Below, in pieces: positions 456 to 32,272 of a DNA stretch of 64,000 nucleotides. Every line of letters starts with the position of its first letter. The stretch's first letter is position 1. The notes below the pieces were generated by a model. That model did no database searches, was not told where the DNA came from, and worked only from the letters and a program-made list of their open reading frames with translations. Made by a program: the position numbers and the translations under genes. Origin of the DNA: Candidatus Micrarchaeia archaeon (GTDB lineage: Archaea; Micrarchaeota; Micrarchaeia; Norongarragalinales; Norongarragalinaceae); assembly GCA_041648335.1 (NCBI GenBank), contig JBAZPG010000002.1, positions 30,528 to 94,527 of the forward strand, written 5' to 3'.

Positions 456-479
456 AGCGTTGCTAAAAAAAAGGTTGAG

Positions 480-2475: not shown

Positions 2476-2548
2476 ATGGGGGAACCGTGATTCGAACACG
2501 GGTCTCCAGCTCCCAAAGCTGGCAGGATGCCAAGCTACCCCATTCCCC
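2476..2548 (-). tRNA. tRNA-Pro (anticodon TGG)
   Basis: Reverse complement: acceptor GGGGGAA/TTCCCCC, D-arm, anticodon stem CCAGC/GCTGG with loop TTTGGGA, T-arm CCGTG-TTCGAAT-CACGG, discriminator A. Confidence 0.75.
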
Positions 2549-2579
2549 CTCTTACTTATTTTTACACCCACACGCGGTT

Positions 2580-2855
2580 TTAAGCAATGGGGAAACCCGC
2601 GAGCGAGGCGAGTATCAGCAAACCGACGCCCGCCAAGCCCAGGAGCCCGCACAACGCGACGGTTAAAAAGTTCACGGCCACGTTCACGCCGTAAGCAGCA
2701 CCCAGGTAGTTCACCGCGAACAACGCGATTACGCCGAGTGCAGCGTTCACTATGAACTTCTTCAACAGGAACACGATGACGAGCCCGGCGATTATCAACA
2801 CGACCGCGGCGATTGCGAACGGAATCAAGCTCAAGGCGAACCACTCGAAAATCAT
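2580..2855 (-). CDS. Small hydrophobic membrane protein (3 predicted TM helices), unknown function
   Basis: 91-aa ORF, almost entirely hydrophobic; lies immediately downstream of rad50 on the same strand. Confidence 0.45.
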   Translation of the reverse strand: MIFEWFALSLIPFAIAAVVLIIAGLVIVFLLKKFIVNAALGVIALFAVNYLGAAYGVNVAVNFLTVALCGLLGLAGVGLLILASLAGFPIA

Positions 2856-2886
2856 TCTTCCACCCTTTTCACTTGGTGCGTCCGGC

Positions 2887-4884: not shown

Positions 4885-6090
4885 TCAAAGCGCCTCCAAT
4901 GCCTTCGCCGCCTTTGCCGTAACACGCGCCTCGAAGTCAGTGCGCGTCTCCCCCTCGGGTTTCGCCTCTTTGAGCGCGTCAAGCAGGGGCAGGGCGGGTG
5001 CCGTGTTCCACTTCCCGCAAGAGAGTTCTTCGAACAGCTTCTCCTCGACTTCCCGCTTGTTCTCCCCTTCGACTTTGAACGCTGCTGATTCGGGCGACGA
5101 CAAGCCCGCGCGGTTCACTTTCACCGCCAGCGCACCAGTGAACGCCGCGGCAATTGAGTTGAACTCGATTTCCCCGGGATTCCCGGACGCGAGCGTCCCG
5201 TGCACCTTGAGCAGGACTATTTTGCCCGCGCACTTGCATGCACGCGCCTTTTCCAACAAGGCTTCGCGCACTTGCGCCGGACTCTTTTCGTTGGCGTCCG
5301 CCTCGACCGCAATTGCCTGCGCCGCGTTAACGGGTTTGAATTCAGTTGTTGTTTTTCCGTTGTTCACGCGCACCAGGTAGAACCCGTGCTCTTTTTTTGA
5401 GAGGTCCTCCAAGTCACGGTAATCCGCGGCGAACAACGGCCCCGGAAACACGATTTTTCCATAGTTTTTCTCGGTTGTTTCGATGCGTTCGTGCACGTGC
5501 CCGCCCGCGTAATAGTCGAAGCCCTTCGGGAACAGCGAGAGCGGCACGCCGTCCACTCCCTTCAGGAAGTCCGGCTTGTGTTCCTCTACCCCCGAGTGGA
5601 AAACGAATATCTTGTAACCAACACCCGCCTCGAGGGAAGCGCGGTCGAGCGCCTCGAAGTGCTCGCGTTCGATGCCGCGCTTTCGGGCATCCAAGCCCGT
5701 GAGGCGCGCCCCGGTTTCCTTGTCCTCGGCGAACGAGAGCTTCAAGCGTTCCCCCTCGTAATCTCCGAGGGACACCTTGGACAGGAGCCCCGCGCTCTCG
5801 AGCACGTCGATTAAGTTTTTCTCGGCGGGAGAATAGTCGTGCGAGCCGTACACCGCGTACACGCGCTTGCCTTGGTCGCGGAGGCGGCGGAGCGCGCGCA
5901 CCGCGCGGTTTGCCACCCCTAAGTCGGGTAACGGGGAGTCGAACAAGTCGCCCGCGATGATTACGAAGTCCGCTTCGCCGCACCCATCCAAGGCGAGCTC
6001 GAAGGCACGGCAGTTCAACTCGCGTAACTCGGGTTCCCGGAAAGCCCCGAGGTGGACGTCGCTGATGTGCGCGAAGCAGAAGTCCTTCAT
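4885..6090 (-). CDS. mre11: DNA double-strand break repair nuclease Mre11 (calcineurin-like phosphoesterase)
   Basis: N-terminal HISDVHLG and GDLFD phosphoesterase motifs; abuts rad50 (stop/start adjacent) in the canonical mre11-rad50 order. Confidence 0.9.
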   Translation of the reverse strand: MKDFCFAHISDVHLGAFREPELRELNCRAFELALDGCGEADFVIIAGDLFDSPLPDLGVANRAVRALRRLRDQGKRVYAVYGSHDYSPAEKNLIDVLESAGLLSKVSLGDYEGERLKLSFAEDKETGARLTGLDARKRGIEREHFEALDRASLEAGVGYKIFVFHSGVEEHKPDFLKGVDGVPLSLFPKGFDYYAGGHVHERIETTEKNYGKIVFPGPLFAADYRDLEDLSKKEHGFYLVRVNNGKTTTEFKPVNAAQAIAVEADANEKSPAQVREALLEKARACKCAGKIVLLKVHGTLASGNPGEIEFNSIAAAFTGALAVKVNRAGLSSPESAAFKVEGENKREVEEKLFEELSCGKWNTAPALPLLDALKEAKPEGETRTDFEARVTAKAAKALEAL

Positions 6091-6115
6091 AGCAGTTTTT
6101 TGGTCGCCAGCGAAT

Positions 6116-6412
6116 TTAAACGAAGCGAGGGGTGACTGCCGGTGTTAATTGCCCTTTATACCATCGCTCGTATTCCTTGTGGTTGCCCACGAAGACGACG
6201 CGCTTTTGTTTGAGGTCCGCACGCGTCTTGAACACGATTCTGTAACCGCCGACTTCCTCCACGAACACGGGCAAGCCGCGCCTCAAGTGCCTGGATTCGG
6301 CGTCCTCGCGCTCCAGCCACGCCAGCTTTTTGGCTATCTTGTCGCGCGCCGTCTTGTCCAACCGCGACAACTGCCTCGCGGCTTCCTCCTCGAGCGCTAC
6401 TTGAAACGCCAA
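6116..6412 (-). CDS. parE: Type II toxin, RelE/ParE family
   Basis: 98-aa protein with YRIVF...RVVFVGNHKEYERWYK C-terminal motif typical of RelE/ParE toxins; 4 nt downstream of an RHH antitoxin gene. Confidence 0.65.
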   Translation of the reverse strand: MAFQVALEEEAARQLSRLDKTARDKIAKKLAWLEREDAESRHLRRGLPVFVEEVGGYRIVFKTRADLKQKRVVFVGNHKEYERWYKGQLTPAVTPRFV

Positions 6413-6416
6413 TGAA

Positions 6417-6689
6417 TCACTTCCGCGCGTTCGCGCGCTTTACCGCCTCGCGCCAGGGCACGAGCTTGCGCTTGCCGGCGTCAATCTCGGCGTCAATCCG
6501 CTCGGTTTTGCGCGCCACGAGTTCAACCTCGATTTCCTTTGGGTCCATCAAGCAATACTCCCTGCCGAGTTCGAGCACGCCCGCGCGAATGGCTTCCGAA
6601 CGGGTTTGAAAATAACCCCGTTCAACGAGCTTATCCAGCACCACGGAAACCGCGCCCTCCAACCTAACCACTGCTTCCAAGCAAACCAC
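6417..6689 (-). CDS. parD: Type II antitoxin, ParD-like ribbon-helix-helix protein (GTG start)
   Basis: LDKLVERGYFQTRSEAIRAGVLEL matches the ParD/RHH consensus (sGrYasrSEvIRaaLR); operon partner of the ParE-like ORF. Confidence 0.65.
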   Translation of the reverse strand: MVCLEAVVRLEGAVSVVLDKLVERGYFQTRSEAIRAGVLELGREYCLMDPKEIEVELVARKTERIDAEIDAGKRKLVPWREAVKRANARK

Positions 6690-6790
6690 CTATAGAACAT
6701 ATACAAAACACCTATTATTATAGGTATTCTGTATTTTGCGGCGGGTTGCCCGGTAGCTGTTCCGCGGCCGGGTTAAAAAACGATTTCCAA
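6690..6790. promoter_or_regulatory. AT-rich divergent intergenic region with near-palindrome acctat-tatt-ataggt (6710-6725) and TATA-like tracts; candidate parDE promoter/operator
   Basis: Palindrome sits about 20-36 nt upstream of the parD start; GC drops sharply relative to flanks. Confidence 0.35.
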
Positions 6791-6887
6791 CCCGTGCCTG
6801 CCGGTGGAGATGCCTCGTTTTTGTTTCGAGTCCGCGCGTTTTGAGTGCCAGCCGAGGTTATAAGGCGGGCTTGCCAGTAATGTTTTT

Positions 6888-7556
6888 ATGCCTAGGCCTA
6901 TGCTTGAGAAGCCGGCGTTTAATCGTCGGGATTTGTCCCGGTTATCCGGAGAAGAGCGCAAAAACTATCTCGCTAACCTGCTTAGGTTGGTGCCAAGCCC
7001 GATCCATTCTAACACTAAACCCATAATCGCCGCGTTTATGAAAAATAGGTCACTTAATACTGCCGCGAAAGTGTTGAATGATACCGGCGTTGTTGTCAAC
7101 AAAATAGCACAAATATTTAGGGCGCACGGCGCTGATCACCGCGGAATTACTAATGGTTTGAATGCTGCGGGTTTTGGTAATGAGGATATTGCTCGTGGTT
7201 TGAAGTCTGCTGGTTTTGATTACGAGGATATTACTAGTGGTTTGAAGTCTGCTGGTTTTGGTCATGAGGATATTGCTCGTGGTTTGATTTCTGCGGGTTT
7301 TGGTGAGGATACTATTGCTAGTGGTTTGAAGTTTGCTGGTTTTGGTAATGAGGATATTGCGGTTGGTTTGTTTGCTGCTGGTTTTAGTCATGTGGGCGTT
7401 GCGAGTGGTTTGAAGGCTGTAGGGTATAATCATGTGGACGTTGCTCGCGGTTTGATTGCTGCTGGTTATGGTCCTAAGGATGTTGCCCGTGGTCTGATTG
7501 ATGCGGGGTTTAGTCCTGAGCGCGTTGTTCTTGGTTTGAAGTTTGCGGGGGTATAA
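6888..7556 (+). CDS. Tandem-repeat protein, N-terminal segment (18-residue GL(K/N)(S/A)AGF..EDIA repeats); terminated by a frameshift in a G5 run
   Basis: Non-repetitive N-terminal 75 aa, then 8 or more repeats of ..EDIARGLKSAGFGH..; stop created at the homopolymer gcggggg (7547-7551). Confidence 0.55.
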   Translation: MPRPMLEKPAFNRRDLSRLSGEERKNYLANLLRLVPSPIHSNTKPIIAAFMKNRSLNTAAKVLNDTGVVVNKIAQIFRAHGADHRGITNGLNAAGFGNEDIARGLKSAGFDYEDITSGLKSAGFGHEDIARGLISAGFGEDTIASGLKFAGFGNEDIAVGLFAAGFSHVGVASGLKAVGYNHVDVARGLIAAGYGPKDVARGLIDAGFSPERVVLGLKFAGV

Positions 7557-7870
7557 CCCTATGGCTGTTGCGATTGGTTTGAATGCTGCTGGTTTTAATC
7601 ATAAGGCTATTACCCGCGGTTTGAATGTTGCTGGTTTTGATCATAAGGCTATTGCCCGTGGTTTGAATGCTGCGGGTTTTGATTATGTGGATATTGTGGC
7701 TGGTTTGAAGTATGCGGGTTTTGGTCACGAGGATATTGCGGTTGGTTTGAAGTCTGCTGGGTATAGTCCGGCGGATGTTGCTCAGTGTTTGAAAGCGGTT
7801 GGTTCTAGGGATTACAACGAACTTGCTCGTGCTTTGAAAGCCGCTGGTTTTGATAACCTAGACATTGCCC
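7130..7870 (+). repeat. About 54-bp coding tandem repeats (ggtttgaa..gctggttttg..gaggatattgc..) underlying the repeat protein
   Basis: Direct repeats visible at nucleotide level; produce low-complexity shadow ORFs on the opposite strand. Confidence 0.6.
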
Positions 7871-7962
7871 GCTTTTTGAAGGCTTCCGGTTTGAGTACTG
7901 CCCGTTACCCCTATAATCCTGGACCTAGTCGGGCGGTTCTTAAAAAAGTTATAAAAAAATAG
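7543..7962 (+). CDS. Tandem-repeat protein, C-terminal segment (same repeat family, +1 frame relative to 6888-7556)
   Basis: Continues the identical repeat (GLNAAGFNHKAITRGLNVAGFDHKAIARGL...) and ends in a non-repetitive tail; removing one G at 7547-7551 fuses both ORFs into one ~357-aa protein. Confidence 0.55.
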   Translation: MRGYNPMAVAIGLNAAGFNHKAITRGLNVAGFDHKAIARGLNAAGFDYVDIVAGLKYAGFGHEDIAVGLKSAGYSPADVAQCLKAVGSRDYNELARALKAAGFDNLDIARFLKASGLSTARYPYNPGPSRAVLKKVIKK

Positions 7963-7980
7963 GTGCCGGCGGGTGTTGGT

Positions 7981-8397
7981 TCAGCGGAGTGATACGTGGT
8001 GGTGGCGGAAGCGCTGCCACACGCTCGGCTCCTTATTCGTGAGCGTCACCGTGCGGTCGTCGTGGATGCGCGCGTGCGCGTGCTTTGCGTGCAAGCCGTG
8101 TGCACGGAATGCCTCGCGCAAGGCGGCGCGTTCGCGTTCGACTATGCTGCGGCTGTAATACATTCCCGCGAGGATTACGAGCGCGAAGAACAGGGGCGCG
8201 TTCGACAGGACGAATTCCGTTAGCGGGTGGATTGCCGTGCGAAGTATTATGGGGTGTGCGGCGAGCGCGCTCAACGCCAGCGCGGTTAAGCCCAGGGCTT
8301 CGGCAGCGTAGTAACGCGCGCGTAACGCCACGAAGCGCGAGACGCGCGCGCGCAACGCCGCGGGTAACTCGGCGTGCGCGTAGTGCCGGTCCTTCAC
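7981..8397 (-). CDS. Hypothetical membrane protein, translationally coupled (ATGA overlap) to the herA stop
   Basis: 138-aa ORF with 2-3 hydrophobic helices; start overlaps herA stop by 4 nt. Confidence 0.45.
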
Positions 8398-9836
8398 GGG
8401 TAACTCCTCTTCGCCGCCTGGCTGGGGCGGATGTGTTCTTCGAACAACGGCACTGCCACGGGCAGGGCGAAGCGGGTGAAAACGCTCGTGACTATAGCCT
8501 CGCCCTTGTCGAGCGCGGCAATCGCCTTATCATCCGTGGACAAATCCTGGGAGGCGCTTGCTATGAGCGCGTCGCGCTCCTGTTTCATCTCGTTTCCGAG
8601 TATGATTTTCGTGTTCAGGTTCGCGAGCACCTCGCGGGGAATCAAGCTCGCGAGCTGGGTGACTGCTATCAAGCCGACGCCGAACTTGCGTCCCTCGCGC
8701 GCGATGCTCGAAAACACGTTCGCGCCCGCGGCTTCGCCGAGCACGCGGGGCGCCTCCTCGAGCACCACGCTAACTACGGGTTTGTTCTCTTGTGCTGCCT
8801 TGCGTTTGTTGAAGAGCGCGTTCGCGAAAACGCTCGCGACTAGGAGTTCGGCTTCGCTCGAGAGGCGCGAGGTATCCACGAGCACCTTGCGGGAGGCGAG
8901 CAGGTGGCTGGTGACATCGTCCACTATTGTCTTGCCGCCTTCCGCGGTGAAAACGCGTTCGTCGAGCACGATTCCGAGCTTGCGTTGGAGCACGTTGAGC
9001 GTAATGTCCTGGACTTTGTCGCCCAAGGTTTCGCCGGCGAGGAGTTTGGGCACCCACTCGTGGTCCCAGCTCTTGAACGCCAGGTGCATGGTTTGCTGTT
9101 GCGCTTCGGTGAACGGCATCACGCCGTTGAAGTGCCACGGCTTGAGCGACGCGTAGTTGATGCGGAGCGAGACCTGTCCGTTCTCGGGGTTCGGGGAATA
9201 CGATTTCAGCCACTCGCCCGCGTGCGGGTGGCTGCGTAGGGCGCGGTGGTACTCGTTGTGCGGGTCCATCACAAGACAGCCGCAGTAACCCTTGTCAAGC
9301 AAATCGTAGAGCATGACTTTCACGAGGTTGCTCTTGCCGCGTCCGGTGGTTGCGGGTATGAGGATGTGGTGGCTCAACACTTTCTCGCCGTCGAGCTCGA
9401 TGCGCTTGCCGGTTGTCTTGCTCCCGTTCCGTAAGTTACCAATGTACAACGGTTTCTCGGGTTTCTCGAGGAACGCCAAGTCCGAGTCGTTGATGCGTCG
9501 CAAACCCTTGAAGAAAGCGGGGAGGCGCTTCGTCGCGACTGCTTTCCCGTTCCGCAAGGTAACCAAGCCCTTGACCTTGGCTAGCACGTAGTTGCGTAAT
9601 TCTTCCTCGAAGAAAACCGATTTCTCCGCCTTGCCTTCGAGTTTGAGTCCGCTCATCAACTCGATTTGCTCGGGCGCGGTCTGGCTCCCGTACTCCAAAT
9701 CGTACACCTGGAGGAGCTGCGTGGAGTCGCCTTCCTCGCACGCGAGCAACTCGCCGATTTCGAGCGCTTCGCCGCTCTTCTGGCGCACGGCGATTTCCCC
9801 GAAAGCGCCCGAGACAATCTGGCTTACTATCTCCAT
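8394..9836 (-). CDS. herA: HerA-family DNA repair helicase (FtsK/HerA ATPase)
   Basis: Walker [17 protein letters not shown], FtsK-like ATPase core; preferred start is the internal ATG (MEIVSQ...) 10 nt after the nurA stop rather than the longer track ORF (to 9992). Confidence 0.8.
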
Positions 9837-9846
9837 TTGAAGCACC

Positions 9847-10833
9847 TCAAATCCTATCCAAGTAATCGTGAGCGTCCACGGTTGCGGAGTCGCGTTCGAT
9901 TTCCCGCCACGCTTCCACGCCGAGTTCCGCCGCGGCAACCGTGCGCAACTGCCTTGCCTCCTCGAAGGACACGCGGGCGCGCTTGTCTGCATCCACCAAG
10001 CCGTACGGGTAACCGAGGAACGCCAAGTCCGCGGACTGGAACGCGAGCGCAGGAAGAACGCTGAACGGGTCGCACCCGCGCTTGACTTCGAAGCGGAAGC
10101 AGTGCGTCGCGTTCTCGTGGAGTTTGGCGACGAACAAGTCCGCGTCGTGGTCGGGCTCCGCGTTCACGCAAAGCGGACCGTACACCCAGGGCGCCTTGCG
10201 GGCGCCGGCGAGGCGTGCGACCGCGGACACGAGCGGCAGTCCCGTTGTAGTGTAAAGCGAACTCGTCTTGGCGAGCGCCGAGAACACGCCTTTCGCTTGC
10301 GCGTACGCGCTTTTCGCGTAAGCCGCTTCGTTCGTCACGCTCGACTGGAGCGTGCCGTCCCGCACTGGGTTCTCGCACGCACCCGCCAGGATCCATTCGG
10401 CGTAACGCCGCGCAACGGCACCCAGGGCGCTCGGGGGTGCCTTGAACCCGCCTTGCGCGAGCGAAGGGTCAACCCAATCCAATGCAACGATGTCGTCGAG
10501 TAGCTTTTCGCCGCTCAACTGCAGCGTTTTTGCAGTCAAGAGCATCTTGCCGCCCGACGGTTCGACGCGCGTGATTACGAGGAACTCGGATTCGCGCGAG
10601 CCCGTGCGCGCGGCGCCGTCGAAAGTGTTCGCGTAAATGCGCACGAGCTGGATTGAGAGGTTCGGCGTGTTCACCACGCTCGCGTTGCCTCCGTCCACGC
10701 ACGACAGCAAGCCGGGTTCGGCGTCGAACGAGCGGAAGCGCGCCTCGTCGAACGCGAGCGAGCGGTAGCGCGGGTCCGTGAACAGCGGTTCGCCCAGCTC
10801 GGTTGCGTGCGGCTTCAAGTCAAGGGAGAACAT
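9847..10833 (-). CDS. nurA: NurA-family 5'-3' nuclease
   Basis: About 330 aa with N-terminal VDGGNASV (NurA D-G-S-type motif) directly upstream of herA, the canonical nurA-herA pairing. Confidence 0.65.
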
Positions 10834-10988
10834 GTTAACGACTCTTTGTTTTTCGATTCTTATTTAGGCTTTCGCGTTCGAAGCCGCGCGGGCGGACGGC
10901 GGGTTTTGCGTTTGGACTGCGGTTACCCGGTTTTTCGCGTGCAATCCGCTATCGAAAATGTTTTTAACGCAGCCATGGTGCGGCTTGC

Positions 10989-11627
10989 GTGGCGGAGCTT
11001 CTCAAGGAAATCGTGCAGCACAAGGGTCTCGCAATCGGCGGTTTCCTGCTTTTGCTGTTCGGATTTTTCCTCGCCGCCGCAGTCGACAACATAAGCCACG
11101 ACCTTGCGGCGAATGAACGGGTGCAACTGGAGAAAGGGATGCAGGATGCGGTGAGCCGGCACCAAGAGGACCGGTTGCAACAGCAAATCCAGTTTGATTC
11201 CAACAAGAAGGTGGAGCTCCAGAAGACCGTGGCGCAGTTCACGATGGCGCTGAATTACGATGTAGCCCAAATCGAAGCCTCCATCTCCGAATACGGTCCG
11301 GAGGACGTTTCGGACCTCAACCTAGCCAACAAGTCCGCCGCAGCCGAAAAATTCGCCTTGCAGGCAAACGAGCTTTTCTCGCATCTCGACGGTTTCATGG
11401 TTTTCATCAGCGACAACGAGGCGGAGTTCGAAAGGCTCGGGGACAACGACTTGAACCTGACCGAGGGTATAGAAAGCTTCTCCGCAGCCAAGACGGGTAT
11501 AATGGAATTGAAAAGCCAGATGGCTCTTGAACTGGAAACATTCGCGAAATCGAATACTTACAAGGAAAGCGAGCGAATGCGGGTCATCGGGGACGCGCTC
11601 GCGCTTCTCAGGAGTGAATCCCAATGA
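10989..11627 (+). CDS. Membrane-anchored protein (N-terminal TM, helical extracytoplasmic domain), paralogous to the next gene
   Basis: Single N-terminal TM (GGFLLLLFGFFLAAA); C-terminal region resembles that of 11624-12247 (LNLTEG..ELETFAKSN..ERM vs LNASLTQ..ELEEFAGSNPERM). Confidence 0.45.
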   Translation: MAELLKEIVQHKGLAIGGFLLLLFGFFLAAAVDNISHDLAANERVQLEKGMQDAVSRHQEDRLQQQIQFDSNKKVELQKTVAQFTMALNYDVAQIEASISEYGPEDVSDLNLANKSAAAEKFALQANELFSHLDGFMVFISDNEAEFERLGDNDLNLTEGIESFSAAKTGIMELKSQMALELETFAKSNTYKESERMRVIGDALALLRSESQ

Positions 11628-12247
11628 AATACTGTCCGGCATGCGGAAAGGCGCTCCCCCAGCCGAACCCGAAGCACTGCCCGGAATGCGGCGAGGCAAC
11701 GAGCGCGCGGTTTGCCGCAAAAGCCGTGGAGAAGAAGCCGAAGATGAGTATTGTCGGACGCCTGCGGGTACTCGGCATTGCAGCTCTCGTGTTGATTTTC
11801 CTTTTCGCGGCTGCAATGTGCGCGGCTGCGCCTTGGCAACGCGCGGCTGCGGCGGGAAACCAGTATTACGAATACCTGACAATGTTCAACAACGACTTGA
11901 ACGACCTCCAGCAACTCAACGAACAATACGACGAACTGCCGCTCGACGATTCGGCGTTCAATCGGAAGTCCGCGATTGCGGGCAGTTACGCCCTGCAGGC
12001 AAGCCAGGCGGTAACCACCTGGAGGTACTTCGATTCCTTCATAACCAAAAACCAGGCGTCGCTGGCGCGGTGGGATTTGAACGCCAGCCTGACGCAGGCG
12101 CGGATAACGGATAGTCGGGCGGTCGTACGGAACACCGCGAATAAAATGGCTTCGGAACTCGAGGAATTCGCGGGCTCGAACCCGGAGAGAATGGCTTCGA
12201 TTTCAAGGATGCTCGAAAAACTCAAGGAACTGGGGAACTTGCAATGA
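11624..12247 (+). CDS. Zinc-ribbon (CPACG..CPECG) membrane-anchored protein, paralog of the previous gene
   Basis: N-terminal C-P-x-C-G x2 zinc ribbon, one TM helix, helical extracytoplasmic domain; ATGA overlaps with both neighbours. Confidence 0.45.
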   Translation: MKYCPACGKALPQPNPKHCPECGEATSARFAAKAVEKKPKMSIVGRLRVLGIAALVLIFLFAAAMCAAAPWQRAAAAGNQYYEYLTMFNNDLNDLQQLNEQYDELPLDDSAFNRKSAIAGSYALQASQAVTTWRYFDSFITKNQASLARWDLNASLTQARITDSRAVVRNTANKMASELEEFAGSNPERMASISRMLEKLKELGNLQ

Positions 12248-13998
12248 AACTGATTGCCAACGGATACGGGTTGACTGCGCTGTTGCTTGCGGCGTTGTTG
12301 TTGGCTGCGCCCCTTGCAAGCGCTCAGGAGGAAGAAATGATTTCCGTGCCGTTCGTTTTCCAATTCTATTTCCTTTATGGAACGAGCGTAGGCGAATGCG
12401 ATGCCAATTGCGTGGGCTCGTGCATGTCCCCGTGCTATGCCGCTGCGGCAGCTGCAGGCGGGTTAAGTGGCACCTCCAACTGCGGTTCCGTGTGCCCGTC
12501 CAGGTGCGCCAGCGAATGCGCCGCGGTATTTTCAAACGCGTACCAGGCGGACGACGGGCTTCCCTCGACCCCATTCGAACCGGAATGCAGTTACGGCTCC
12601 TACACCGCTTGCGAAGTACCGCAACAATCCGTGTCGGAGATAGAACCGTCCTGGCCCGTTATTTCCGAGGGAACGCCCTCGCTCGATGGACCCGGGATGC
12701 TTGGCGGAGGCACGGAGAGCGACGGGGAATACGATGGTGGCGCGGGCATAACCGTCGAGCCGCAAACCTGTGCCGCAACAGCACCCGACGGCCACCCGCT
12801 GCGGTGGGACCAGATTTGGGGTTGCTATGACATTTTCTGGAAGAACGATTACTGCGCTGTCGCAACCGGCTGCAACACCGGCGTGCCGTGCACCGGAAGG
12901 CAGGGTTGCATATGGAATGGTGCCTCCTGCGTGCCGTGCAATGCGCCGACCTGCATATACTCGTGTCCTGGAACTGGTGGCGGACCCGCTGCGCCAGCCG
13001 ACCGGGTGACTGCGGTTCAAAATGAAATTCCCGCGCCCACTGCTGCACCGACGCGCCAGGCGGGCGGAACACCGACTCCCGTGCCAAGCGCAGCGCCAGC
13101 ACAGCCCACCCCAACAGCCATCCCTACTGCAACGCCCGCCCCGGTATGCGGCGCCTACGGGAACTGCAAGGCGTGCGTGAACGCGGCGAAAGAGGAGGGT
13201 GAAAGCGTTTGCGGGTGGTCCGAATTCCTAAACATTTGCATGGACGGCGACACCTGGCGCGCGGTGAACGCGAGCGGGCTCAAGGCCGGCTGGGCGGATG
13301 AGGAAAAGTACTGTCCGGTCCAAGCCGAGGTTTACTGTTTTGAATTCACCGACTGCTTTTCCTGTGCTGGCAATGCCGGCGTCAAACGCGAGTGCCTGTG
13401 GTCAACCACCCAGGAAAAATGCGAGCCCTACGACGCGTTCGGGGATTTCAAAACCGAGGACAACCCGAAGGGCAAGGACGTGATTCTTCCAACAATGTGC
13501 TCGGAGCGCGACTGCTCGGCGTATTCCGGGTGCGCGGAATGCGAGGGTAACGCCGCGTGCATTTGGCCGGAGGGCGGCGATGAGTGCTCGACGTTCAAAG
13601 GCGACGGCGAGGGCGCATACTTCTTCCCGAGCGCGTGCCCTGATGCAACAATTGAAGCGGTTGTGGCTGCGCCGACGTCCGTCCCCTGTCCGGCGGGCTG
13701 CAAGTGCAACTCGCAGGCGAAACCGGTTTCGTGCGGCGGCAAGAGCATTGATTCCGCGAGCCTGGTTTCAGTTGACCGCGCGGTTGTAAACGCGGGCGCT
13801 TCTCTCCAGCGGGTGAACGAGGTGGAGTTCAACCAGGCTGCTGCCGGCGGGAACGCATCCTACGCCGTGCGCGGTTCCCGGAGTGGAGTGGTATTCTTCG
13901 TGTTGCCCGTGAGCTTTGACGTTACCGCGGTTGTGAACGCGGAGACCGGCGAAGTCGAATCAGTCGAGCAGCCCTGGTGGAGCGTCCTAGTCGGCTGA
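12244..13998 (+). CDS. Secreted Cys-rich protein with repeated PSI-like (C..C..C..W..C) modules and a Pro/Thr/Ala-rich linker
   Basis: Signal peptide (LLAALLLAAPLASA); over 40 Cys in recurring CxxC..CxW..C patterns; PTAAPTRQAGGTPTPVPSAAPAQPTPTAIPTATPAP linker. Confidence 0.5.
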   Translation: MKLIANGYGLTALLLAALLLAAPLASAQEEEMISVPFVFQFYFLYGTSVGECDANCVGSCMSPCYAAAAAAGGLSGTSNCGSVCPSRCASECAAVFSNAYQADDGLPSTPFEPECSYGSYTACEVPQQSVSEIEPSWPVISEGTPSLDGPGMLGGGTESDGEYDGGAGITVEPQTCAATAPDGHPLRWDQIWGCYDIFWKNDYCAVATGCNTGVPCTGRQGCIWNGASCVPCNAPTCIYSCPGTGGGPAAPADRVTAVQNEIPAPTAAPTRQAGGTPTPVPSAAPAQPTPTAIPTATPAPVCGAYGNCKACVNAAKEEGESVCGWSEFLNICMDGDTWRAVNASGLKAGWADEEKYCPVQAEVYCFEFTDCFSCAGNAGVKRECLWSTTQEKCEPYDAFGDFKTEDNPKGKDVILPTMCSERDCSAYSGCAECEGNAACIWPEGGDECSTFKGDGEGAYFFPSACPDATIEAVVAAPTSVPCPAGCKCNSQAKPVSCGGKSIDSASLVSVDRAVVNAGASLQRVNEVEFNQAAAGGNASYAVRGSRSGVVFFVLPVSFDVTAVVNAETGEVESVEQPWWSVLVG

Positions 13999-24063: not shown

Positions 24064-25476
24064 TTGTTGAAGTCCACCGCGGAAGTGCGCGTGCCCAAGG
24101 ACCCGCTCGAGCAGGTCATCGGACAGGAGCACGCCGTGGAAATCGCGAAGGTCGCCGCCCGCCAGCGCCGCCACCTCCTCTTGGTTGCCGCGCCCGGCAC
24201 CGGGAAGTCCATGCTCGCCCAAGCCATTGCCTTCCACTTGCCCGAGCCCACCGAAGAGATATCCGTGCTCCACAATCCCGCGAACCCCGAACGCCCCACG
24301 GTCGAGGTACGCTCGCGCCAGCAAGCGTCGCGTGAAGAGAAGGCGCGCGAGAGCGTGAAGGGGCGCCTCGTGGATCCCGCGGACGTGCCCTCGTTCGTTG
24401 CCGAACGCCTGGGCTTCAGGTGCCCGCGCTGCGGACAGCTCGGACGCGCCTCCGAGGAGGCGTGCGCGAACTGCGGTGCTGACAAGTCGTTCTCGGTGAA
24501 CCCGTTTTCGAGCATCTACTTGGACAAGCGCGAGCGCCCGAACCAGGTATCAACAACGCGCCTCAAGGAGGACAACTCCGAGGAGGTAATCGTTTACGAG
24601 CGCCAAGGCGAACGCGTGCGCGTGCTCGACCAGAGCGCCCTGGAAAAGCTGGAGGAGCTCAGCAAGCGCCAGCCCCGCAAGATTATCGTGCCCTTCAACC
24701 GGAACGCGTTCGTTGTTGCAACGGGCGCCTCGGAAACCGAGCTCCTCGGGGACGTGAAGCACGACCCGTACGGCGGGCACCAGCAGATTGGGACGCTCGC
24801 TTATTTGCGCGTTGTCCCTGGAGCGGTGCACGAAGCCCACCAAGGCGTATTGTTCATTGACGAGTTGAGCGCGCTCGCGAGCGTCCAGCGCTTCCTGTTC
24901 ACCGCAATGCAAGAGAAGAAATACCCAATCGTGGGGCGCAACCCCCAGAGCGCGGGGGCGAGCGTGAAAGTCGAGGGCGTGCCCTGCGATTTCGTGCTCG
25001 TCGCGGCATCCAACATAAAGGACTTGCCGTCAATCCTGCCCCCGTTGCGGAGCCGCATAATCGGGAACGGTTACGAAGTGCTCCTAGATACCGTGATGCC
25101 GGACACCGCTGGAAACCGCGCCAAAATGTGGCAGTTCACCGCACAGGAGATACGCAAAGACGGGAAAATCCCACACGCCTCCCCCGAGGCTGTGGAGGAA
25201 ATAATCAATGTGTCGTGCGGGAAGGCGCGCGAGTACGACGACGCCGACGACTCCCTCACTTTGCGTTTCCGCGAGTTGAGCGGCATCGTGCGCATCGCCG
25301 GGGACTTGGCGGTTTCGCGCGGAGTTGACTTGATTGACGCGGAATGCGTGCGCGGCGCACTCAAGCTGGGAGCGCGCATCGAGCGCCAGATAGAGGACAA
25401 GTACGATTCGGTGTGGAAGGCGGAAGCCGCGGACTCCCTGCGTCCGGCGGCAAAACCGGACAAGTCGAACGCCTAA
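24064..25476 (+). CDS. LonB-like AAA+ ATPase lacking TM insert and protease domain, with a Zn-ribbon insert
   Basis: LonB-type N-terminus (DPLEQVIGQEHAVEIAKVAARQRRHLLLVAAPGTGKSML), CPRCG..CANCG insert, Walker B GVLFIDEL, sensor/arginine-finger region; ends about 120 aa after the AAA module without a Ser-Lys protease domain. Confidence 0.6.
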   Translation: MLKSTAEVRVPKDPLEQVIGQEHAVEIAKVAARQRRHLLLVAAPGTGKSMLAQAIAFHLPEPTEEISVLHNPANPERPTVEVRSRQQASREEKARESVKGRLVDPADVPSFVAERLGFRCPRCGQLGRASEEACANCGADKSFSVNPFSSIYLDKRERPNQVSTTRLKEDNSEEVIVYERQGERVRVLDQSALEKLEELSKRQPRKIIVPFNRNAFVVATGASETELLGDVKHDPYGGHQQIGTLAYLRVVPGAVHEAHQGVLFIDELSALASVQRFLFTAMQEKKYPIVGRNPQSAGASVKVEGVPCDFVLVAASNIKDLPSILPPLRSRIIGNGYEVLLDTVMPDTAGNRAKMWQFTAQEIRKDGKIPHASPEAVEEIINVSCGKAREYDDADDSLTLRFRELSGIVRIAGDLAVSRGVDLIDAECVRGALKLGARIERQIEDKYDSVWKAEAADSLRPAAKPDKSNA

Positions 25477-26921: not shown

Positions 26922-27182
26922 ATGCCTCCCCTGTCGATTCGCCCGGGAATGCGCCCGAAGGAGCTGAAGGAGGAATTGAGCCGCCAAGGTTTCGGTTTCT
27001 CGAACGAAGCCAAGGGCGGACACGTTGCGTTGACTTGGGAGGGCGAACTGTTGCGCTCCGAAAGCGGGCGTCCGGTGGTAATACCCGTTCATGGCAGCAA
27101 AAACGCGTTGAGTTCGGGTGTTGCCTCGCAGTTGAGGCGTCAAGTAGCGCCTTATTTGGAGCAAATAAGAAAGAGAGCGTGA
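26922..27182 (+). CDS. HicA/YcfA-like small protein (candidate toxin); its stop overlaps a GTG start of the LonB fragment
   Basis: KGGHVAL...RPVVIPVHGSK.ALSSGVASQLRRQ resembles HicA (G-S/G-H ... vPvH ... ilrQag). Confidence 0.4.
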   Translation: MPPLSIRPGMRPKELKEELSRQGFGFSNEAKGGHVALTWEGELLRSESGRPVVIPVHGSKNALSSGVASQLRRQVAPYLEQIRKRA

Positions 27183-28198
27183 AGCAATTTTTGAAAAAGA
27201 AAAAGGAAAAGAAGAAGGAACTGTTGTTGCCCGAGTCCATCACTTCTACCAAGGAGCTGGCAGTGCCCAAGCGCCTCGTGGACCAGGTCATCGGGCAGGA
27301 GTCCAGCGTCGAGGTAATCAAGAAGGCGGCTTCCCAGAAGCGGAATGTCCTGCTCGTGGGCACGCCGGGCACCGGGAAGTCCATGCTCGCCCAAGCCATG
27401 GCTGAGCTGATGCCCATTGGAAAGCTAGAGGACGTGCTCGCTTACCCGAACCCCGAGAACGAGAACGCGCCAATAATCAAAGTCGTTCCCGCGGGTGAAG
27501 CCAAGAAAATCGTTGAAAAGGAGCGCGCGAAAGCAACGGTTCCCGGCGGAAGCCCGAACCTCGTGGTAATGCTCGTCATGCTCCTCTTCTCGTTCCTCCT
27601 ACTCACGTTCTGGCGCGAGAGCCTGGGCGACGTGATAACCGCCGCGCTCCTCCTCTGCCTGTTCTTCACCGCGGGCTTGTTCGCTCTCGGTTCCCAACTC
27701 GGACGCGGCGCCCGTTTGTTCGAGCCCGGCGAAACCGCCAAGATACTCGTGGACAACTCAACGCACACCCGCGCCCCGTTCATCGACGCCACGGGCGCGC
27801 GCGCCGGCGCCCTCCTCGGGGATTGCCGCCACGACCCGTTCCAGTCGTTCGAAGCCGGGCAGCGCCTTGAAGTCGATTACAACGGAAAGAAGACCGTGGT
27901 GTCGTTCGAAGATTTGTGGACGCGCGCCGCAACGGATTACCCCGAATCAATCGAACGCAACGAGGACGGGTACGAGGCGCTCGCCTTGCCCGCGGAATTG
28001 AAAGCGTACACCGTGGGTTTCAAGGACAACAAAAAAACACGGACGCGCATCCTCTCGTTGAACCGCCGCCCGTACGACGGCGAACTCGTGAGCGTGGAAG
28101 GCGTGACGGTGACGCCCGAGCACGAGTTGTTCCTAACGGACGGCTCCCGCAAGCCCGCCTCGAAAATCACGAAAAGCGACCGCCTAGTCGTTGAGTGA
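27179..28198 (+). pseudogene. lonB: Membrane LonB protease gene truncated after the AAA+ N-terminal half, ending in an intein N-terminal splicing region (blocks A and B) without intein C-terminus or downstream extein
   Basis: LonB signature VIGQESSVEVIKKAASQKRNVLLVGTPGTGKSML, two-helix TM insert, GDCRHDPFQS, then SFEAGQRLEVDYNGKKTVVSFEDLW (intein block A, Ser1) and GVTVTPEHELFL (block B TxxH); stop at 28198, no Walker B or protease domain follows. Confidence 0.5.
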
Positions 28199-28256: not shown

Positions 28257-29339
28257 ATGAAACTCGACGACGTGCTGGTAAAGGGGAAGAAGAACGTAAT
28301 CCAAGTCGCGCCCGCGGTGCGCGTCACGCTCGGCGAACTCTACGGTTTGCCTGCGGGCACGCCGGCGACCGGGAAAGTCGTGGGCTGCCTCAAGGCGTTG
28401 GGTTTTGACTTCGTATTCGACACGAGCTTCGGCGCCGACGTCGTGGTGGCCGAGGAGAGCGCGGAGCTCGCCAAGCGCCTCAAGGACGGCGGTCCGTTCC
28501 CGATATTCAACTCGTGCTGTCCCGGTTCGGTGCTCTTCCTCGAACACGCCTACCCCGAGCTCGTGCCCAGCATAGTCACGGTGAAGAGCCCCATGGAAGT
28601 CACCGGCTCGCTAATCAAGTCGTATTTCGCGGAGAAGAAGAAAATCGCGCCCTCGAAAATAAATTCCGTGGCGTTGATGCCGTGCATGATAAAGAAAACC
28701 GAAGCCAGGAAGCCGGAGTTCGACTTCGAAGGCATCCGTCCCGTGGACTGCGTAATCACCACGGTCGAACTCGCCGCCCTGCTCGAAGAGGCGGGTGTGG
28801 ACTTCAAGAAGGTTAAGGAATGCGCGTTCGACGACTTGCTTGGTGTCGCGTCGGGTGCGGGACAGATTTTCGGTTCGAGCGGGGGCGTAAGCGAGGCATC
28901 GATACGCAACTACGCTTTCCTCAAGGGGTTGCCCCTCGAGAAGCTGGACTCGAAGCCGCTCCGCGGTTCGGAGGGCTTGCGCGAGGAAACGTTCGACTTG
29001 GGCGGCGAACGCGTGAGCGTCCTGGTAATCAACTGTTTGAAGAACGCGCCGGCTGCGCTCTCGGACAAGAAGCGCCTTGCGAAATACAATTTCGTGGAAA
29101 TGATGGCGTGCCTGGGCGGCTGCGTGGGCGGCGCCGGACAGCCGCCCTCGACGCTCGAGACGCTCGAGGCGCGCCGCAAGGGGCTTTACGGAATCGACGC
29201 CGGCGCGCGCGTTAAGGTCGCCGCCCAGAACCCCCAGATTAAGGCGCTTTACGATTCCTACCTCGGGGAACCGAGGAGCGAGAAGGCGATGCGTATCCTG
29301 CACACCCAGCACGACAAGGTGTGCCAGCACTGCGCTTGA
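28257..29339 (+). CDS. [FeFe]-hydrogenase catalytic H-cluster domain protein (HydA-like, no accessory FeS domain)
   Basis: L1 FNSCCPGS..YPELVPSIVTVKSPMEVTGSLIKSY, L2 VALMPCMIKKTEARKPE, L3 VEMMACLGGCVGGAGQP; N-terminus KGKKNVIQVAPAVRVTLGE..LGFDFVFDTSFGAD matches the start of the CpI H-domain. Confidence 0.8.
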   Translation: MKLDDVLVKGKKNVIQVAPAVRVTLGELYGLPAGTPATGKVVGCLKALGFDFVFDTSFGADVVVAEESAELAKRLKDGGPFPIFNSCCPGSVLFLEHAYPELVPSIVTVKSPMEVTGSLIKSYFAEKKKIAPSKINSVALMPCMIKKTEARKPEFDFEGIRPVDCVITTVELAALLEEAGVDFKKVKECAFDDLLGVASGAGQIFGSSGGVSEASIRNYAFLKGLPLEKLDSKPLRGSEGLREETFDLGGERVSVLVINCLKNAPAALSDKKRLAKYNFVEMMACLGGCVGGAGQPPSTLETLEARRKGLYGIDAGARVKVAAQNPQIKALYDSYLGEPRSEKAMRILHTQHDKVCQHCA

Positions 29340-29351: not shown

Positions 29352-30590
29352 ATGTCGAAACGGATTTTGAGCATATCGCGCGCCCCCGGGCAGTTGGCTT
29401 CCGCTAGGGCGGCGGGTTTCAACCGCGTCGAACTTTTTACCAAGGGCATTTCATCCGAGAACATGGAAGCGAAAATAGCTGAGGCGCAACGCCTGCTGAA
29501 AGAGCACTCGCTCTCTGTGGGTTCGGTGGTTATACCCAAATCATCCACGCTCGCGGATTTCAAAGAGAACGCGCGCCTCACGATTGCTTTTGCCTCGGGT
29601 GTTGGCGCGAAAATCGTGGTCGCCGACTACCCCGCTTTCCGCGGCGGCGAGTACCGCAAGAAAGAGCGCGAGGGCGCGGACATTGTTTCCCCCGCGGCGC
29701 TTGGCAACGTGCGCGGCTTGCTCAAGAGCGTGCCGCACCCGTTCGAAGTCGCCGAAGCGTTGTCCGAGTTGAAGAAGGACGCGGCGAGCAGTAAAGTCAA
29801 GATTTTGATTGAGTCGACGGGTGGTTCTGCTTTGCTTTACAAGCCGCTCGGCTTCAAGGCGTTCGAGCGCGTGGCGCGCGCCTCGCACGGACTCGTGCTT
29901 GATTTGGAGCACGTGGCGCAGGCAATGATAGCCCAGCCCGTGGAAGAGGTTTACAACCCCGCAACGCGTTTCCTATCCAACCGCGGCTCCGAGGAGGACG
30001 CGGTTCTGGTGCGCTCTTTCTATCAGGATTACGGCAATCACATGGATGCGCGTTCGAAGCGGGCGTTCCAGGACTTCCTGGAGGCGCACGGCAAACCGGG
30101 CGAAGAGGCGCGCTTCAGGAGTGCCTGCACGCGGTTGCTGGCGTTGACGAAACCCGGGTTACGCGGCTTCGGGAAAGAAGGCGCAACGCCAAAGGACTTG
30201 CAAGTCAAGCCGTCGAAATGGGTGTACGGGTTGTTCGTCAAGGCGTGGGGCTCGCTCCCGATAAAACACGTGCACCTGACCGGCGGGCACCTCGGGGAAC
30301 GCCTCGCGCCAAGCGAAACCGTGCGCACCTCGTTCGGTACCTCGGACTTGGCATTCGAGCACGCTTACGAAATCGAAACCCCGCGCGGCGAGCCGATAAT
30401 CTTGGGTTCGAAGCCCGGGCAATCGCTTTACGAATACCTGCACGCGAAAATGGGCGGCAGGCTTTACGCGAACAAGCCCTGGCACGAGTTCGCGCGCGAC
30501 TTGCTGGACGGCCGCAAGGCAACTGTGAATTTCGAGATAGAACCGAAACTCGTGCGCCCCGCGGACTTGAAGAACGCACGAAATTTGTGA
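29352..30590 (+). CDS. Hypothetical protein, possibly a xylose-isomerase-like TIM-barrel (sugar-phosphate isomerase/epimerase) fold
   Basis: N-terminal pattern AAGFNRVELF resembles this fold; otherwise unassigned; 12 nt downstream of the hydrogenase-like gene. Confidence 0.35.
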   Translation: MSKRILSISRAPGQLASARAAGFNRVELFTKGISSENMEAKIAEAQRLLKEHSLSVGSVVIPKSSTLADFKENARLTIAFASGVGAKIVVADYPAFRGGEYRKKEREGADIVSPAALGNVRGLLKSVPHPFEVAEALSELKKDAASSKVKILIESTGGSALLYKPLGFKAFERVARASHGLVLDLEHVAQAMIAQPVEEVYNPATRFLSNRGSEEDAVLVRSFYQDYGNHMDARSKRAFQDFLEAHGKPGEEARFRSACTRLLALTKPGLRGFGKEGATPKDLQVKPSKWVYGLFVKAWGSLPIKHVHLTGGHLGERLAPSETVRTSFGTSDLAFEHAYEIETPRGEPIILGSKPGQSLYEYLHAKMGGRLYANKPWHEFARDLLDGRKATVNFEIEPKLVRPADLKNARNL

Positions 30591-30663
30591 CGCGCACTTA
30601 TTTTATCGGGTTTTGAAGAATTAATGTAGTTTTAAAAACACGCAAACAAGTTGTTTCGGCGTT

Positions 30664-30903
30664 TTAAACGGGCATTGCAACCTGTAATGTGGTTACAAAT
30701 TTAGTTCCCTGTCGGTTCATAATTTCTTTCTTTTCGTTTGGGGTTAAACATTCTATGTGTAATTCTATTGCTTCCCGTAAATTAGCGGTTGCAGTAGGTA
30801 TGTCCTTACCTTGCGAGGCTACATCTAAATCTGGACACCAGGCGGTGTAGGTTGCACCATCTTTATAGGTTACTGCTGAAAAGCCCAAAACATTCGTTTT
30901 CAT
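30664..30903 (-). CDS. hicB: HicB-like antitoxin N-terminal domain (UPF0150 fold)
   Basis: TYTAWCPDLDVASQGKDIPTATANLREAIELHIECL matches HicB; the real start is the internal ATG at 30903, and the longer track ORF (to 31125) has an implausible N-terminus. Confidence 0.55.
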   Translation of the reverse strand: MKTNVLGFSAVTYKDGATYTAWCPDLDVASQGKDIPTATANLREAIELHIECLTPNEKKEIMNRQGTKFVTTLQVAMPV

Positions 30904-30976
30904 GTAATCTCTTTCGATGCGAGGGTATATAAATAGAGTTAAACAAAAACCATAACTGTAACTTAAGTGATGTTTT

Positions 30977-31636
30977 GTGAGTTTTGTTGAAACATTGACG
31001 GATGATGTTGATCCTCTTGACAGCCTATTTGTAAAGGGCGAATCTCTGAATCGTGAATTACTTAGGGACTTATTGTTTGATTTTATAAGATTAGACGAAA
31101 GCGGACGAATTTTTCCGCTTACCAATTTTTATTCAGAAACTAATCGTAATAAAGTTTTATTATTACTTCTTGCTAGTAAAGCTCTTTCATTGAAAACGAA
31201 CATTGTTGATGATGTTTCGCCAAAAGAGCTAGAAAAAACATCAGATATTCCTGCGGGGTCCATACGTCCAACTCTACGTCAACTTGCCGAAGAACGTTTA
31301 GTTGAGGAAAATGATGGACGGTATAAGATATTATCTGGTGCGTTACCCCGCTGTTCTCAAATTCTAAAATCTGGCAACCGAACCAGACGTGCTGTTTCTT
31401 TTTCTGGAATTTCAACTGAAAAAACTCAAAAGAGCATGGCGTCCGTTTTGAAAGATTTAGTTTCGGAGGGCGAATTAGATTCGGGTCAGGCTGCGTCTGA
31501 AGTTTTTTCTTTGGTTAATCAACGTCGACCTAACACGAAATATAATGCCCTTTACAAAGTGCTTAAGGATTTAGTTCATGATCGAATATTAGCCCGAGAA
31601 ATGAAGGGAGACGTTTGGAATTATAGGCGAATTTAA
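30977..31636 (+). CDS. Hypothetical protein with a central winged-helix-like segment
   Basis: 219-aa ORF in the low-GC island; SIRPTLRQLAEERLVEENDGRYKI looks wHTH-like; stop overlaps the hicA start (TAATG). Confidence 0.4.
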   Translation: MSFVETLTDDVDPLDSLFVKGESLNRELLRDLLFDFIRLDESGRIFPLTNFYSETNRNKVLLLLLASKALSLKTNIVDDVSPKELEKTSDIPAGSIRPTLRQLAEERLVEENDGRYKILSGALPRCSQILKSGNRTRRAVSFSGISTEKTQKSMASVLKDLVSEGELDSGQAASEVFSLVNQRRPNTKYNALYKVLKDLVHDRILAREMKGDVWNYRRI

Positions 31637-31854
31637 TGAAAACGCCGGTTGTAACTGGAAAAGAGGTTTTATCCGTTCTACAAAAAAACGGTTTTGCAGT
31701 AGTTAGGTGGAAAGGATCTCACGCGCATTTAACTAAGGGTAGCTTGCAGGTTACCGTGCCGGTACACAGTAATGATGAGATTAATCCGGGTGTTTTACGG
31801 TCTATTGCACGACAAGCAGGATTTGAACCAAATTCTTTCTTCAATTTGTTTTAG
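31636..31854 (+). CDS. hicA: HicA-family mRNA interferase toxin
   Basis: VLQKNGFAVVRWKGSHAHLTKGSLQVTVPVHSNDEINPGVLRSIARQAGF is a near-consensus HicA. Confidence 0.75.
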   Translation: MKTPVVTGKEVLSVLQKNGFAVVRWKGSHAHLTKGSLQVTVPVHSNDEINPGVLRSIARQAGFEPNSFFNLF

Positions 31855-31876
31855 TAATAATATGCGGATCCGCGCG

Positions 31877-32272
31877 TTAATTTCGCTTCTCGAACTCGTC
31901 GACCGCACCGTGGAAGTATTTGCTCAACTTTTTCCTGCACGTTTCGAGGGGAACCCACTCGCATTGCGAGTGTTCGCCGCCGCACGCCAGCACCCCGCCT
32001 TCCAGCGAGCAGGCGAAGACAATCATGGTTATGGACTGCCCGTCGTCGCGCGTGAAGTGGTGGACCTGCAGGGGCGCGCCCACGCGGGTTTCGAGTCCGG
32101 TTTCCTCGCGCACCTCGCGCTTCAAGCCGTCGAACGGGTTCTCTCCTTCTTCGAGTCGTCCGCCAGGTATCTCCCACAAGCCAGGGCAGTGCTCGTCGTC
32201 CTGGTTCCGCTTAATCAGTAGCACCCGGTTCGAGTCGACTATGAACGCCTTGACGGCGATTGCGTGCTTCAT
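31877..32272 (-). CDS. NUDIX hydrolase
   Basis: Nudix box GGRLEEGENPFDGLKREVREETGL. Confidence 0.8.
   Translation of the reverse strand: MKHAIAVKAFIVDSNRVLLIKRNQDDEHCPGLWEIPGGRLEEGENPFDGLKREVREETGLETRVGAPLQVHHFTRDDGQSITMIVFACSLEGGVLACGGEHSQCEWVPLETCRKKLSKYFHGAVDEFEKRN

Follow-up and report, generated by a model that had tools for sequence, protein, structure and literature searches.

A 64,000-nucleotide stretch of the genome of a Candidatus Micrarchaeia archaeon (contig JBAZPG010000002.1 of assembly GCA_041648335.1; in what follows, the window) carries a gene for the membrane protease LonB that ends part-way through an intein, and the question it raises is whether such a gene is broken or is one part of something larger. 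The original prediction, made from the letters of the window, took the gene to be broken and explained it as a degraded homing-intein allele, as the product of a recombination or insertion event, or as a misassembly. We find that the gene is split, not broken, and consider it probable (roughly 0.85) that lonB in this organism is a naturally split gene and that a split intein joins its two protein products. The N-terminal half, lonB-N, lies within the window and its partner just outside it (Table 1).

The N-terminal half opens as a membrane LonB, as had been read from its motifs. Residues 22-223 of lonB-N match positions 5-196 of 608 in the NCBIfam LonB model TIGR00764 (E 2e-57), and the protein carries a Walker A motif, the HDPFQ at which the N-extein closes, and two hydrophobic segments whose 19-residue Kyte-Doolittle means exceed 1.6 in two peaks, forming a hairpin at what we take to be the site of the transmembrane insert of the LonB family. 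A protein identical in all 339 residues (P0001) is present in the public collection, and P0241 (NCBI MFA4946166.1, “Candidatus Micrarchaeia archaeon”) is its mate in a cluster at 90% identity. Alone, lonB-N scores 195 bits on TIGR00764, below the cutoff of 516.6. Its open reading frame (ORF) holds no Walker B motif, and across the 64-kb window a motif scan and tblastn with the C-terminal part of a full Micrarchaeota LonB matched a Walker B or Lon protease region only in the AAA+ paralogue at 24064-25476, which bears out the earlier observation that no Walker B or Ser-Lys protease domain follows. The GC content is uniform across the extein-intein junction and the end of the ORF (0.60 in the N-half gene, 0.62 in the C-half gene and 0.59 in the window), and this lack of a compositional break argues against the recombination or insertion that had been suggested.

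Directly after HDPFQ the protein continues for 117 aa and stops. Pfam recognised no intein segment above threshold in this tail, and the hints from Pfam and NCBIfam were below threshold, so three other tests were applied. A profile built from 15 homologues of the tail and searched against all PDB sequences matched inteins exclusively at E <0.1, the best being Mja KlbA (2jmz, E 1e-10), followed by Tvo VMA, Pho RadA, Pho CDC21, PI-PkoII, NrdJ-1 and Mtu RecA. An AlphaFold2 model of the 117 residues, computed from a 42-sequence alignment, reached a pLDDT (predicted local distance difference test) of 90.3, and Foldseek, run with this model against the PDB, gave an intein for each of the 12 best matches (probability at least 0.95), with the NeqN/NeqC split intein of Nanoarchaeum and, at TM 0.62, the Mja TFIIB mini-intein among them. 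Lastly, when the tail is fused in silico to the C-terminal intein fragment of the partner gene (IntC), the resulting 150 aa align end to end (E 2e-30) with the 173-aa mini-intein of P0370, which is contiguous, occupies the same position in LonB and lacks an endonuclease-like domain; the break between the two fragments lies within the linker that connects its lobes. On profile, fold and collinearity, the tail of lonB-N is an intein N-lobe (IntN), and the earlier identification of blocks A and B and of a break inside the intein is upheld. Together the fragments present a class 1 intein, with Ser1, the TPEH of block B, a C-terminal Asn followed by Ser+1, and a Hint fold; the interruption lies between blocks B and F, in the endonuclease-insertion loop, and IntN ends where contiguous relatives have a linker or an endonuclease-like domain, as does the one at locus L029.

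An intact gene elsewhere on the same contig encodes the other half of the protein. It shares the strand of lonB-N, whose start lies 28.5 kb downstream of it, and stands 1.3 kb past the left end of the window, so that the advice to look elsewhere for the C-extein and intein blocks F and G, for example in a split gene, proved well founded. The gene comprises a 33-aa IntC ending in VLCKN and a 419-aa C-extein starting SGGLGTP, and it holds the Walker B motif (VLFIDE), the AAA+ LID and the Lon Ser-Lys protease domain with its serine motif GVEGDSASIS. A look-up of contigs encoding P0001 returned none, and the gene was reached from the cluster-mate P0241 and then from the window protein encoded at 791-2347, which with 10-kb flanks led to locus L132. 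The 21-kb locus around P0241 (L130) is identical to window positions 17179-38198, and positions 9211-21557 of L132 are identical to window positions 1-12347, both at 100%. A location just past the left end had been suggested by the window gene at 779-2188, a weak homologue (29% identity) of a gene downstream of the C-half in the relative GCA_964630975.1; upstream of the partner gene stand EamA, DHH and prefoldin genes, the same as in that relative. About 45 nt before its ATG is the sequence TTTTAAAA, which may be a TATA-like element of the partner gene. A scan for bacterial-type promoters and terminators was uninformative, the host being an archaeon, and ARAGORN found no tRNA beside the C-half genes.

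Other routes to a C-terminal half led elsewhere. The paralogue at 24064-25476 was considered as a C-half and rejected, its C-terminal part used as bait giving protease-less paralogues and fragments alone. Searching the protein database with a C-half profile returned mostly fragments or proteins whose start codons had been placed too far downstream, and it gave P0272, and through it the first paired genome. A scan of metagenomes with the P0272 C-half then found three further split C-halves (L091, L097 and L098), none of them from the organism of the window.

Joined in silico, the 222-aa N-extein and the 419-aa C-extein make a protein of 641 aa that matches TIGR00764 at 865.7 bits in one stretch, over positions 5-607 of 608; a full-length LonB, with both the AAA+ and the S16 protease domains, is obtained solely in this spliced form. 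That the two halves owe their separation to a chimeric or mis-joined contig, the true gene being contiguous, is an extremely improbable account. The data are metagenomic and known here from assemblies rather than reads, which lends it some room, but the 533,585-bp ENA contig k141_467856 (ERZ27249422, Micrarchaeia) carries the identical locus, at 100% over the 21 kb and 12 kb given above, with the N-half at 278943-279962 and the C-half at 249098-250456. The database places the N-half protein on a 99.6-kb contig from JGI (Joint Genome Institute), and the C-half region is found unchanged in a separate Logan assembly. Moreover, lonB-N ends in a clean stop that is followed by a conserved downstream gene, GC content shows no discontinuity, and the stop recurs at the same position in all 120 homologues described below, which come from many assemblies. 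The misassembly proposed at the outset thus gives way to independent assemblies that return the same gene in the same synteny.

The wider distribution of the N-half bears on whether it is a relic. A protein database search with the 339-aa lonB-N returned 939 matches, of which 120 are listed, as clusters at 90% identity; all 120 are proteins of 321-428 aa covering 81-100% of lonB-N, and, the identical entry aside, they are 43-63% identical to it. The listed homologues come from Micrarchaeota, Diapherotrites/Iainarchaeota and Norongarragalinales, and the split form also occurs in a Woesearchaeota genome. After the HDPxQ motif, Ser follows in 87, Cys in 30 and Thr in 3 of them, and then 92-185 aa of intein. 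The block B motif TP[EG]H is present in 104 of the 120, and the eight complete exceptions that were inspected are T/S-x-x-H variants, the forms seen being TSDH, TSEH, SPEH and TPKH; where TP[EG]H was located, the listed proteins stop 22-70 aa past it, with a median of 30. In an alignment of 17 sequences, the invariant intein positions include W247, L270-P271, N295, G301 and T312-H315, and among 50%-identity representatives matching IntN alone (n=22) the match mostly runs to the C-terminus of the protein. Two genomes hold both halves as separate genes: that of the k141_467856 contig and the syntenic GCA_964630975.1 (contig CAZVVY010000002.1), in which the C-half (77489-78775, P0272), with an IntC of 30 aa, has EamA, DHH and prefoldin genes as neighbours and precedes the N-half (100429-101412, P0006) by 21.6 kb. 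Just upstream of the C-half gene of this second genome are direct repeats of about 110 bp (L086:3700-3940), which by eye include, on the minus strand, a sequence like the 5' half of a tRNA; ARAGORN found no tRNA in them.

These data leave little of the proposal that the N-fragment is a pseudogene, the decaying remnant of a disrupted homing-intein allele. It drew on the fact that nothing after the ORF inside the 64-kb window could complete LonB, and we now judge it highly improbable. An intact partner gene is present on the same contig, the joined halves give a perfect LonB, and neither the window nor the flanks of the partner gene contain a substitute LonB with transmembrane segments. In addition, all 120 listed clusters keep the same architecture, with the frame, the stop position past block B and the catalytic residues maintained and no frameshifts, and the N-half gene keeps its place in synteny where the protein is merely 58-62% identical. 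Neither decay nor assembly error would be expected to recur with an identical frame and stop position, and with the catalytic residues kept, in so many diverged lineages and in assemblies made independently. The split state is, to judge from these comparisons, conserved in diverged lineages and maintained by selection.

The site of the intein can be placed by comparison with relatives that lack it. Eighty loci from GTDB species were fetched with the N-half alignment and sorted by their junction: 64 hold an uninterrupted LonB reading HDP[FLY]Q-[ST]GGL[GE]TP, 10 are split N-halves, three (L026, L029 and L048) have a contiguous intein at exactly this site, and three have a junction that is not recognisable. 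The intein therefore sits between the Gln and the Ser of SGGLGTP; one of the contiguous examples, at HDP.Q|SGGL, is from a Methanoxibalbensis genome (L048). At three loci (L011, L013 and L044) an N-half ORF, a free-standing ORF of about 330-400 aa and a C-half ORF follow one another on one strand, with more ORFs between the free-standing ORF and the C-half in L011 and L044. The C-halves of these loci start with about 30-45 aa ending in G.[VL]YN[VL]TT..GNLF...IL[VC][HK]N, at once followed by SGGLGTP.

The free-standing ORFs have two kinds of homologue: the central domain of the L029 contiguous intein (E 1e-43 to 1e-64) and, in L012, a domain that IntN carries as a fusion (E 1e-40 to 1e-102); in L008 just a remnant of the latter domain is present. 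The family shares an N-terminal GYK[RK]IAK.LG....RWWH segment and a LAGLIDADG-like LGxLxGDGG motif, and searches of Pfam (E at most 0.01) and of PDB sequences (E at most 1) gave no match to it, so that the LAGLIDADG assignment is one of motif. It may represent a divergent or undescribed family of homing endonucleases. With three of these ORFs as queries, tblastn detected no counterpart in the window or in L132; the arrangement known as a fractured gene, with adjacent halves and a free-standing endonuclease gene, is thus found in L011, L013 and L044 and not at the window locus.

LonB of DPANN archaea is, more generally, a hot spot for inteins, with at least four insertion sites: GTGK|S in Walker A (P0366), VDA|TG (P0376), the HDPFQ|S site of lonB-N, and VPC|DF (L008). 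P0366 and P0376 each combine a contiguous intein with a terminal split IntN in one protein, and at L008 (8154-13857) LonB is in three pieces with two split inteins, the second of which has an endonuclease-like domain fused to its IntN.

Two intact genes, homologous to the halves of one protein, with conserved catalytic residues and an intein fold, conserved across lineages and found together in single genomes, invite a mechanism in which the halves are reunited after translation. The N-half would insert in the membrane through its hairpin with both ends cytoplasmic, and the tethered IntN would capture the IntC of the soluble C-half to complete one Hint fold. Class 1 splicing could then proceed in trans with Ser1, the Thr and His of block B, the terminal Asn and Ser+1: an N-O acyl shift at Ser1 would be followed by transesterification to Ser+1, cyclisation of the terminal Asn and an O-N shift, freeing the intein fragments and leaving a 641-aa LonB with a native junction. 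With Walker A on one polypeptide and Walker B on the other, a complete ATPase site needs halves that are joined or at least associated.

Association without splicing is the alternative that deserves most discussion. The halves could form a non-covalent, two-chain LonB through the intein fragments or the AAA+ interface, with the intein serving as a non-catalytic dimerisation module, and Nanoarchaeum has split protein genes whose products are never joined. The residues that assist splicing give this possibility its main footing and weigh, with several smaller points, against trans-splicing. The penultimate intein residue (G:6) is Lys in this organism (CKN) and not the usual His, which is present (HN) in the relatives L011, L013, L086 and L091, and block F, by our reading of the motif, is VYN...GNLF family-wide, with Asn rather than Asp at F:4 and no F:13 His; the absence of all three assisting residues weakens the case for activity without excluding it. 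Thr at intein position 1, as in 3 of the 120 listed homologues, is unusual, the GTG start of lonB-N, which overlaps the upstream ORF, was assigned in the manner of a gene caller, and splicing itself is deduced from sequence. F:4, F:13 and the penultimate His are described as assisting residues, F:4 and F:13 being less conserved (PMC4031507), and inteins without a penultimate His can splice, to go by the work of Chen, Benner and Perler 2000 and of Sun et al. 2005 on Ssp DnaE as PMC4031507 cites it.

Against a pure docking module stands the retention of residues that docking would not need. All the chemistry residues are kept across lineages that are about 45% identical, with Ser or Cys at position 1 in 117 of the 120 listed homologues, the T/S-x-x-H of block B kept, and the terminal Asn and Ser+1 of the N|S junction invariant in every C-half examined. 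The KN end and the deviations at F:4 and F:13 are the reason why a non-spliced, two-chain LonB stays as a minor alternative, and we regard it as unlikely; a LonB joined by trans-splicing is the reading that we prefer.

How far this reading extends beyond one organism is a separate matter. On balance, we lean slightly towards regarding the window locus as the first recognised member of a large, undescribed archaeal family of naturally split inteins, fixed in many Micrarchaeota, Iainarchaeota and Woesearchaeota. Such a family would, to our knowledge and with chances a little better than even, be the second archaeal case after the DNA polymerase of Nanoarchaeum (Neq PolB) and the first in a membrane protease. 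It is likewise somewhat favoured that its extant stages would include an empty site, a mini-intein, an intein with an endonuclease-like domain, fractured and dispersed genes, and a LonB in three pieces. The open-access full-text literature searched yielded no split Lon or LonB intein and no inteins in Micrarchaeota, Iainarchaeota or Woesearchaeota, which is weak evidence of novelty because open-access papers alone were covered. The mechanism belongs to the textbooks; novelty appears to lie in the host protein, in the lineages, in how large the family is and in the coexistence of all its evolutionary stages.

The closest parallel is Neq PolB (NeqN/NeqC, PDB 5OXZ), also a split intein of a DPANN archaeon with the halves of an essential enzyme in distant genes, an IntN of about 100 aa, an IntC of about 30 aa and a break at the endonuclease-insertion site, and NeqN is among the top fold matches of our IntN. 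The two differ in host, a DNA polymerase there and a membrane protease here, and in range, one organism there and many divergent clusters of Micrarchaeota, Iainarchaeota and Woesearchaeota here. The LonB intein is further set apart by its catalytic Ser1 and Ser+1, and the structural alignment of its IntN with NeqN has 18% identity. The “fractured genes” of Dassa et al. 2009 (NAR 37:2560) are split inteins from ocean metagenomes whose halves flank a homing endonuclease gene that stands free, reportedly in gp41 helicase, NrdA/NrdJ, IMPDH and DnaE and not in Lon. The N-half, endonuclease-like ORF and C-half of L011, L013 and L044 resemble this arrangement, unlike the window locus, with its 28.5 kb between the halves and no detectable endonuclease-like ORF.

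Cyanobacterial DnaE (Ssp/Npu) likewise has a clade-wide split intein at one site with dispersed halves; all known inteins at the DnaE insertion point are split (PMC4760082), and Ssp DnaE also lacks the penultimate His, to judge from the title under which PMC4031507 cites Sun et al. 2005. The contrast with LonB lies in the bacterial host, the catalytic Cys1 and Cys+1 and the replicative polymerase that the DnaE inteins interrupt; for LonB, related lineages differ in whether the gene is uninterrupted, has a contiguous intein, is fractured or is dispersed. LonB itself has 10 listed inteins in Euryarchaeota, all contiguous, for example the Pyrococcus abyssi Lon intein (PMC4760082). These share the host protein with the intein described here but are single polypeptides that splice in cis.

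Table 1. Coordinates of the split lonB gene, its parts, related elements and neighbouring genes. Positions are those of the window unless a locus is named.
Feature	Position	Strand	Details
lonB-N, N-terminal half of split lonB	27179..28198	+	339 aa, GTG start, TGA stop; N-extein and IntN
N-extein (LonB residues 1-222)	27179..27844	+	Ends GDCRHDPFQ; matches TIGR00764; uninterrupted LonB genes of related archaea continue HDP[FL]Q-SGGLGTP
Walker A / P-loop GTPGTGKS	27359..27382	+	Read directly; invariant in 17-sequence alignment
Membrane hairpin	27557..27700	+	Two hydrophobic segments, 27557-27613 and 27632-27700
GDCRHDPFQ motif	27818..27844	+	End of N-extein
IntN, N-terminal split-intein fragment	27845..28195	+	117 aa; Ser1; starts SFEAGQRLEV
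Ser1 codon	27845-27847	+	Directly after HDPFQ
Intein block A	27845-27919	+	Within IntN
Intein block B, TPEH	28112-28123	+	Within IntN
IntC and LonB C-extein gene	L132:6544-7902 (window-equivalent -2666..-1308)	+	452 aa; Pfam Sigma54_activat, LonB_AAA-LID, Lon_C
Endonuclease-like ORFs	L011:11045-12247; L013:11159-12349; L044:11088-12215		Also as a domain in L029 and L012
LonB-like AAA+ paralogue	24064-25476	+	470 aa; Zn-ribbon insert replacing transmembrane hairpin; no protease domain
HicA-like ORF	26922..27182	+	TGA stop overlaps lonB-N GTG (GTGA); between RNase Z-like gene and lonB-N
[FeFe]-hydrogenase-like gene	28257-29339	+	360 aa; Pfam Fe_hyd_lg_C (E 7e-78) and small-subunit domain
HicB-like ORF	30664-31125	-	In low-GC island
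219-aa ORF	30977-31636		In low-GC island; a 219-aa gene is called there on the identical contig
Canonical HicA	31636-31854		In low-GC island

The original prediction had a HicA-like ORF translationally coupled to the GTG start of lonB-N; the overlap of the two stands, and the likeness to HicA is weak, with a Pfam HicA_toxin match of E 1.1e-3, below the cutoff, and 33% identity (BLASTP, E 6e-5) to the canonical HicA of the window. The ORF is probably co-transcribed with lonB-N and is not part of the intein system: no gene is called there on the identical contig, and in the syntenic loci L003 and L088 lonB-N begins 10-55 bp past a divergent neighbour, which leaves no room for it. The LonB-like AAA+ paralogue was correctly described as free of a protease domain; it is a complete protein belonging to a separate, widespread family. 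In the syntenic loci L003, L088 and L130 its conserved neighbour is a DnaG-type primase gene; Methanobacteria, Thermoplasmata and Altiarchaeota have relatives of it that are about 60% identical and are labelled “sigma-54 interacting” or “Lon-insertion domain”. The [FeFe]-hydrogenase-like gene directly downstream of lonB-N is missing at both L003 and L088, and it may bear on the minimal [FeFe] hydrogenases of archaea that PMC11216029 reports. Further downstream, an island at 30400-32000 has a GC content of 0.36-0.46 against 0.59 for the window and was probably acquired horizontally.

In current annotation, where the listed N-half clusters from DPANN genomes have a source name, they are labelled “ATP-binding protein”, “hypothetical protein” or as Lon-related. 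The public calls for the C-halves P0272, P0283 and P0284 start inside IntC, for example at “MHNSGG...” or “MSITFLCKNSGG...”, so that the intein fragment is hidden; for P0272, an in-frame upstream ATG (L086:3941-4001) restores a complete IntC of 30 aa. With such labels and start calls, a metabolic reconstruction of one of these reduced genomes could list LonB as missing or truncated.

Serine-nucleophile split inteins with a short IntC are wanted for ligation under oxidising conditions (PMC13014065), and, if the trans-splicing described here is real, its Ser1/Ser+1 chemistry and an IntC of 30-33 aa would provide new orthogonal, cysteine-independent tools, with a family that offers many diverged and possibly orthogonal split-intein pairs. 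Naturally split inteins are few, and a single site that is found in contiguous, mini, fractured and dispersed states constitutes a series on their origin from homing inteins. For the organisms themselves, a membrane-anchored Walker A and a soluble Walker B on separate polypeptides mean that assembly of the protease must include either trans-splicing or association. If it is trans-splicing, the assembly of the main membrane quality-control protease of these archaea would hinge on a post-translational ligation at the membrane, a possible point of control.

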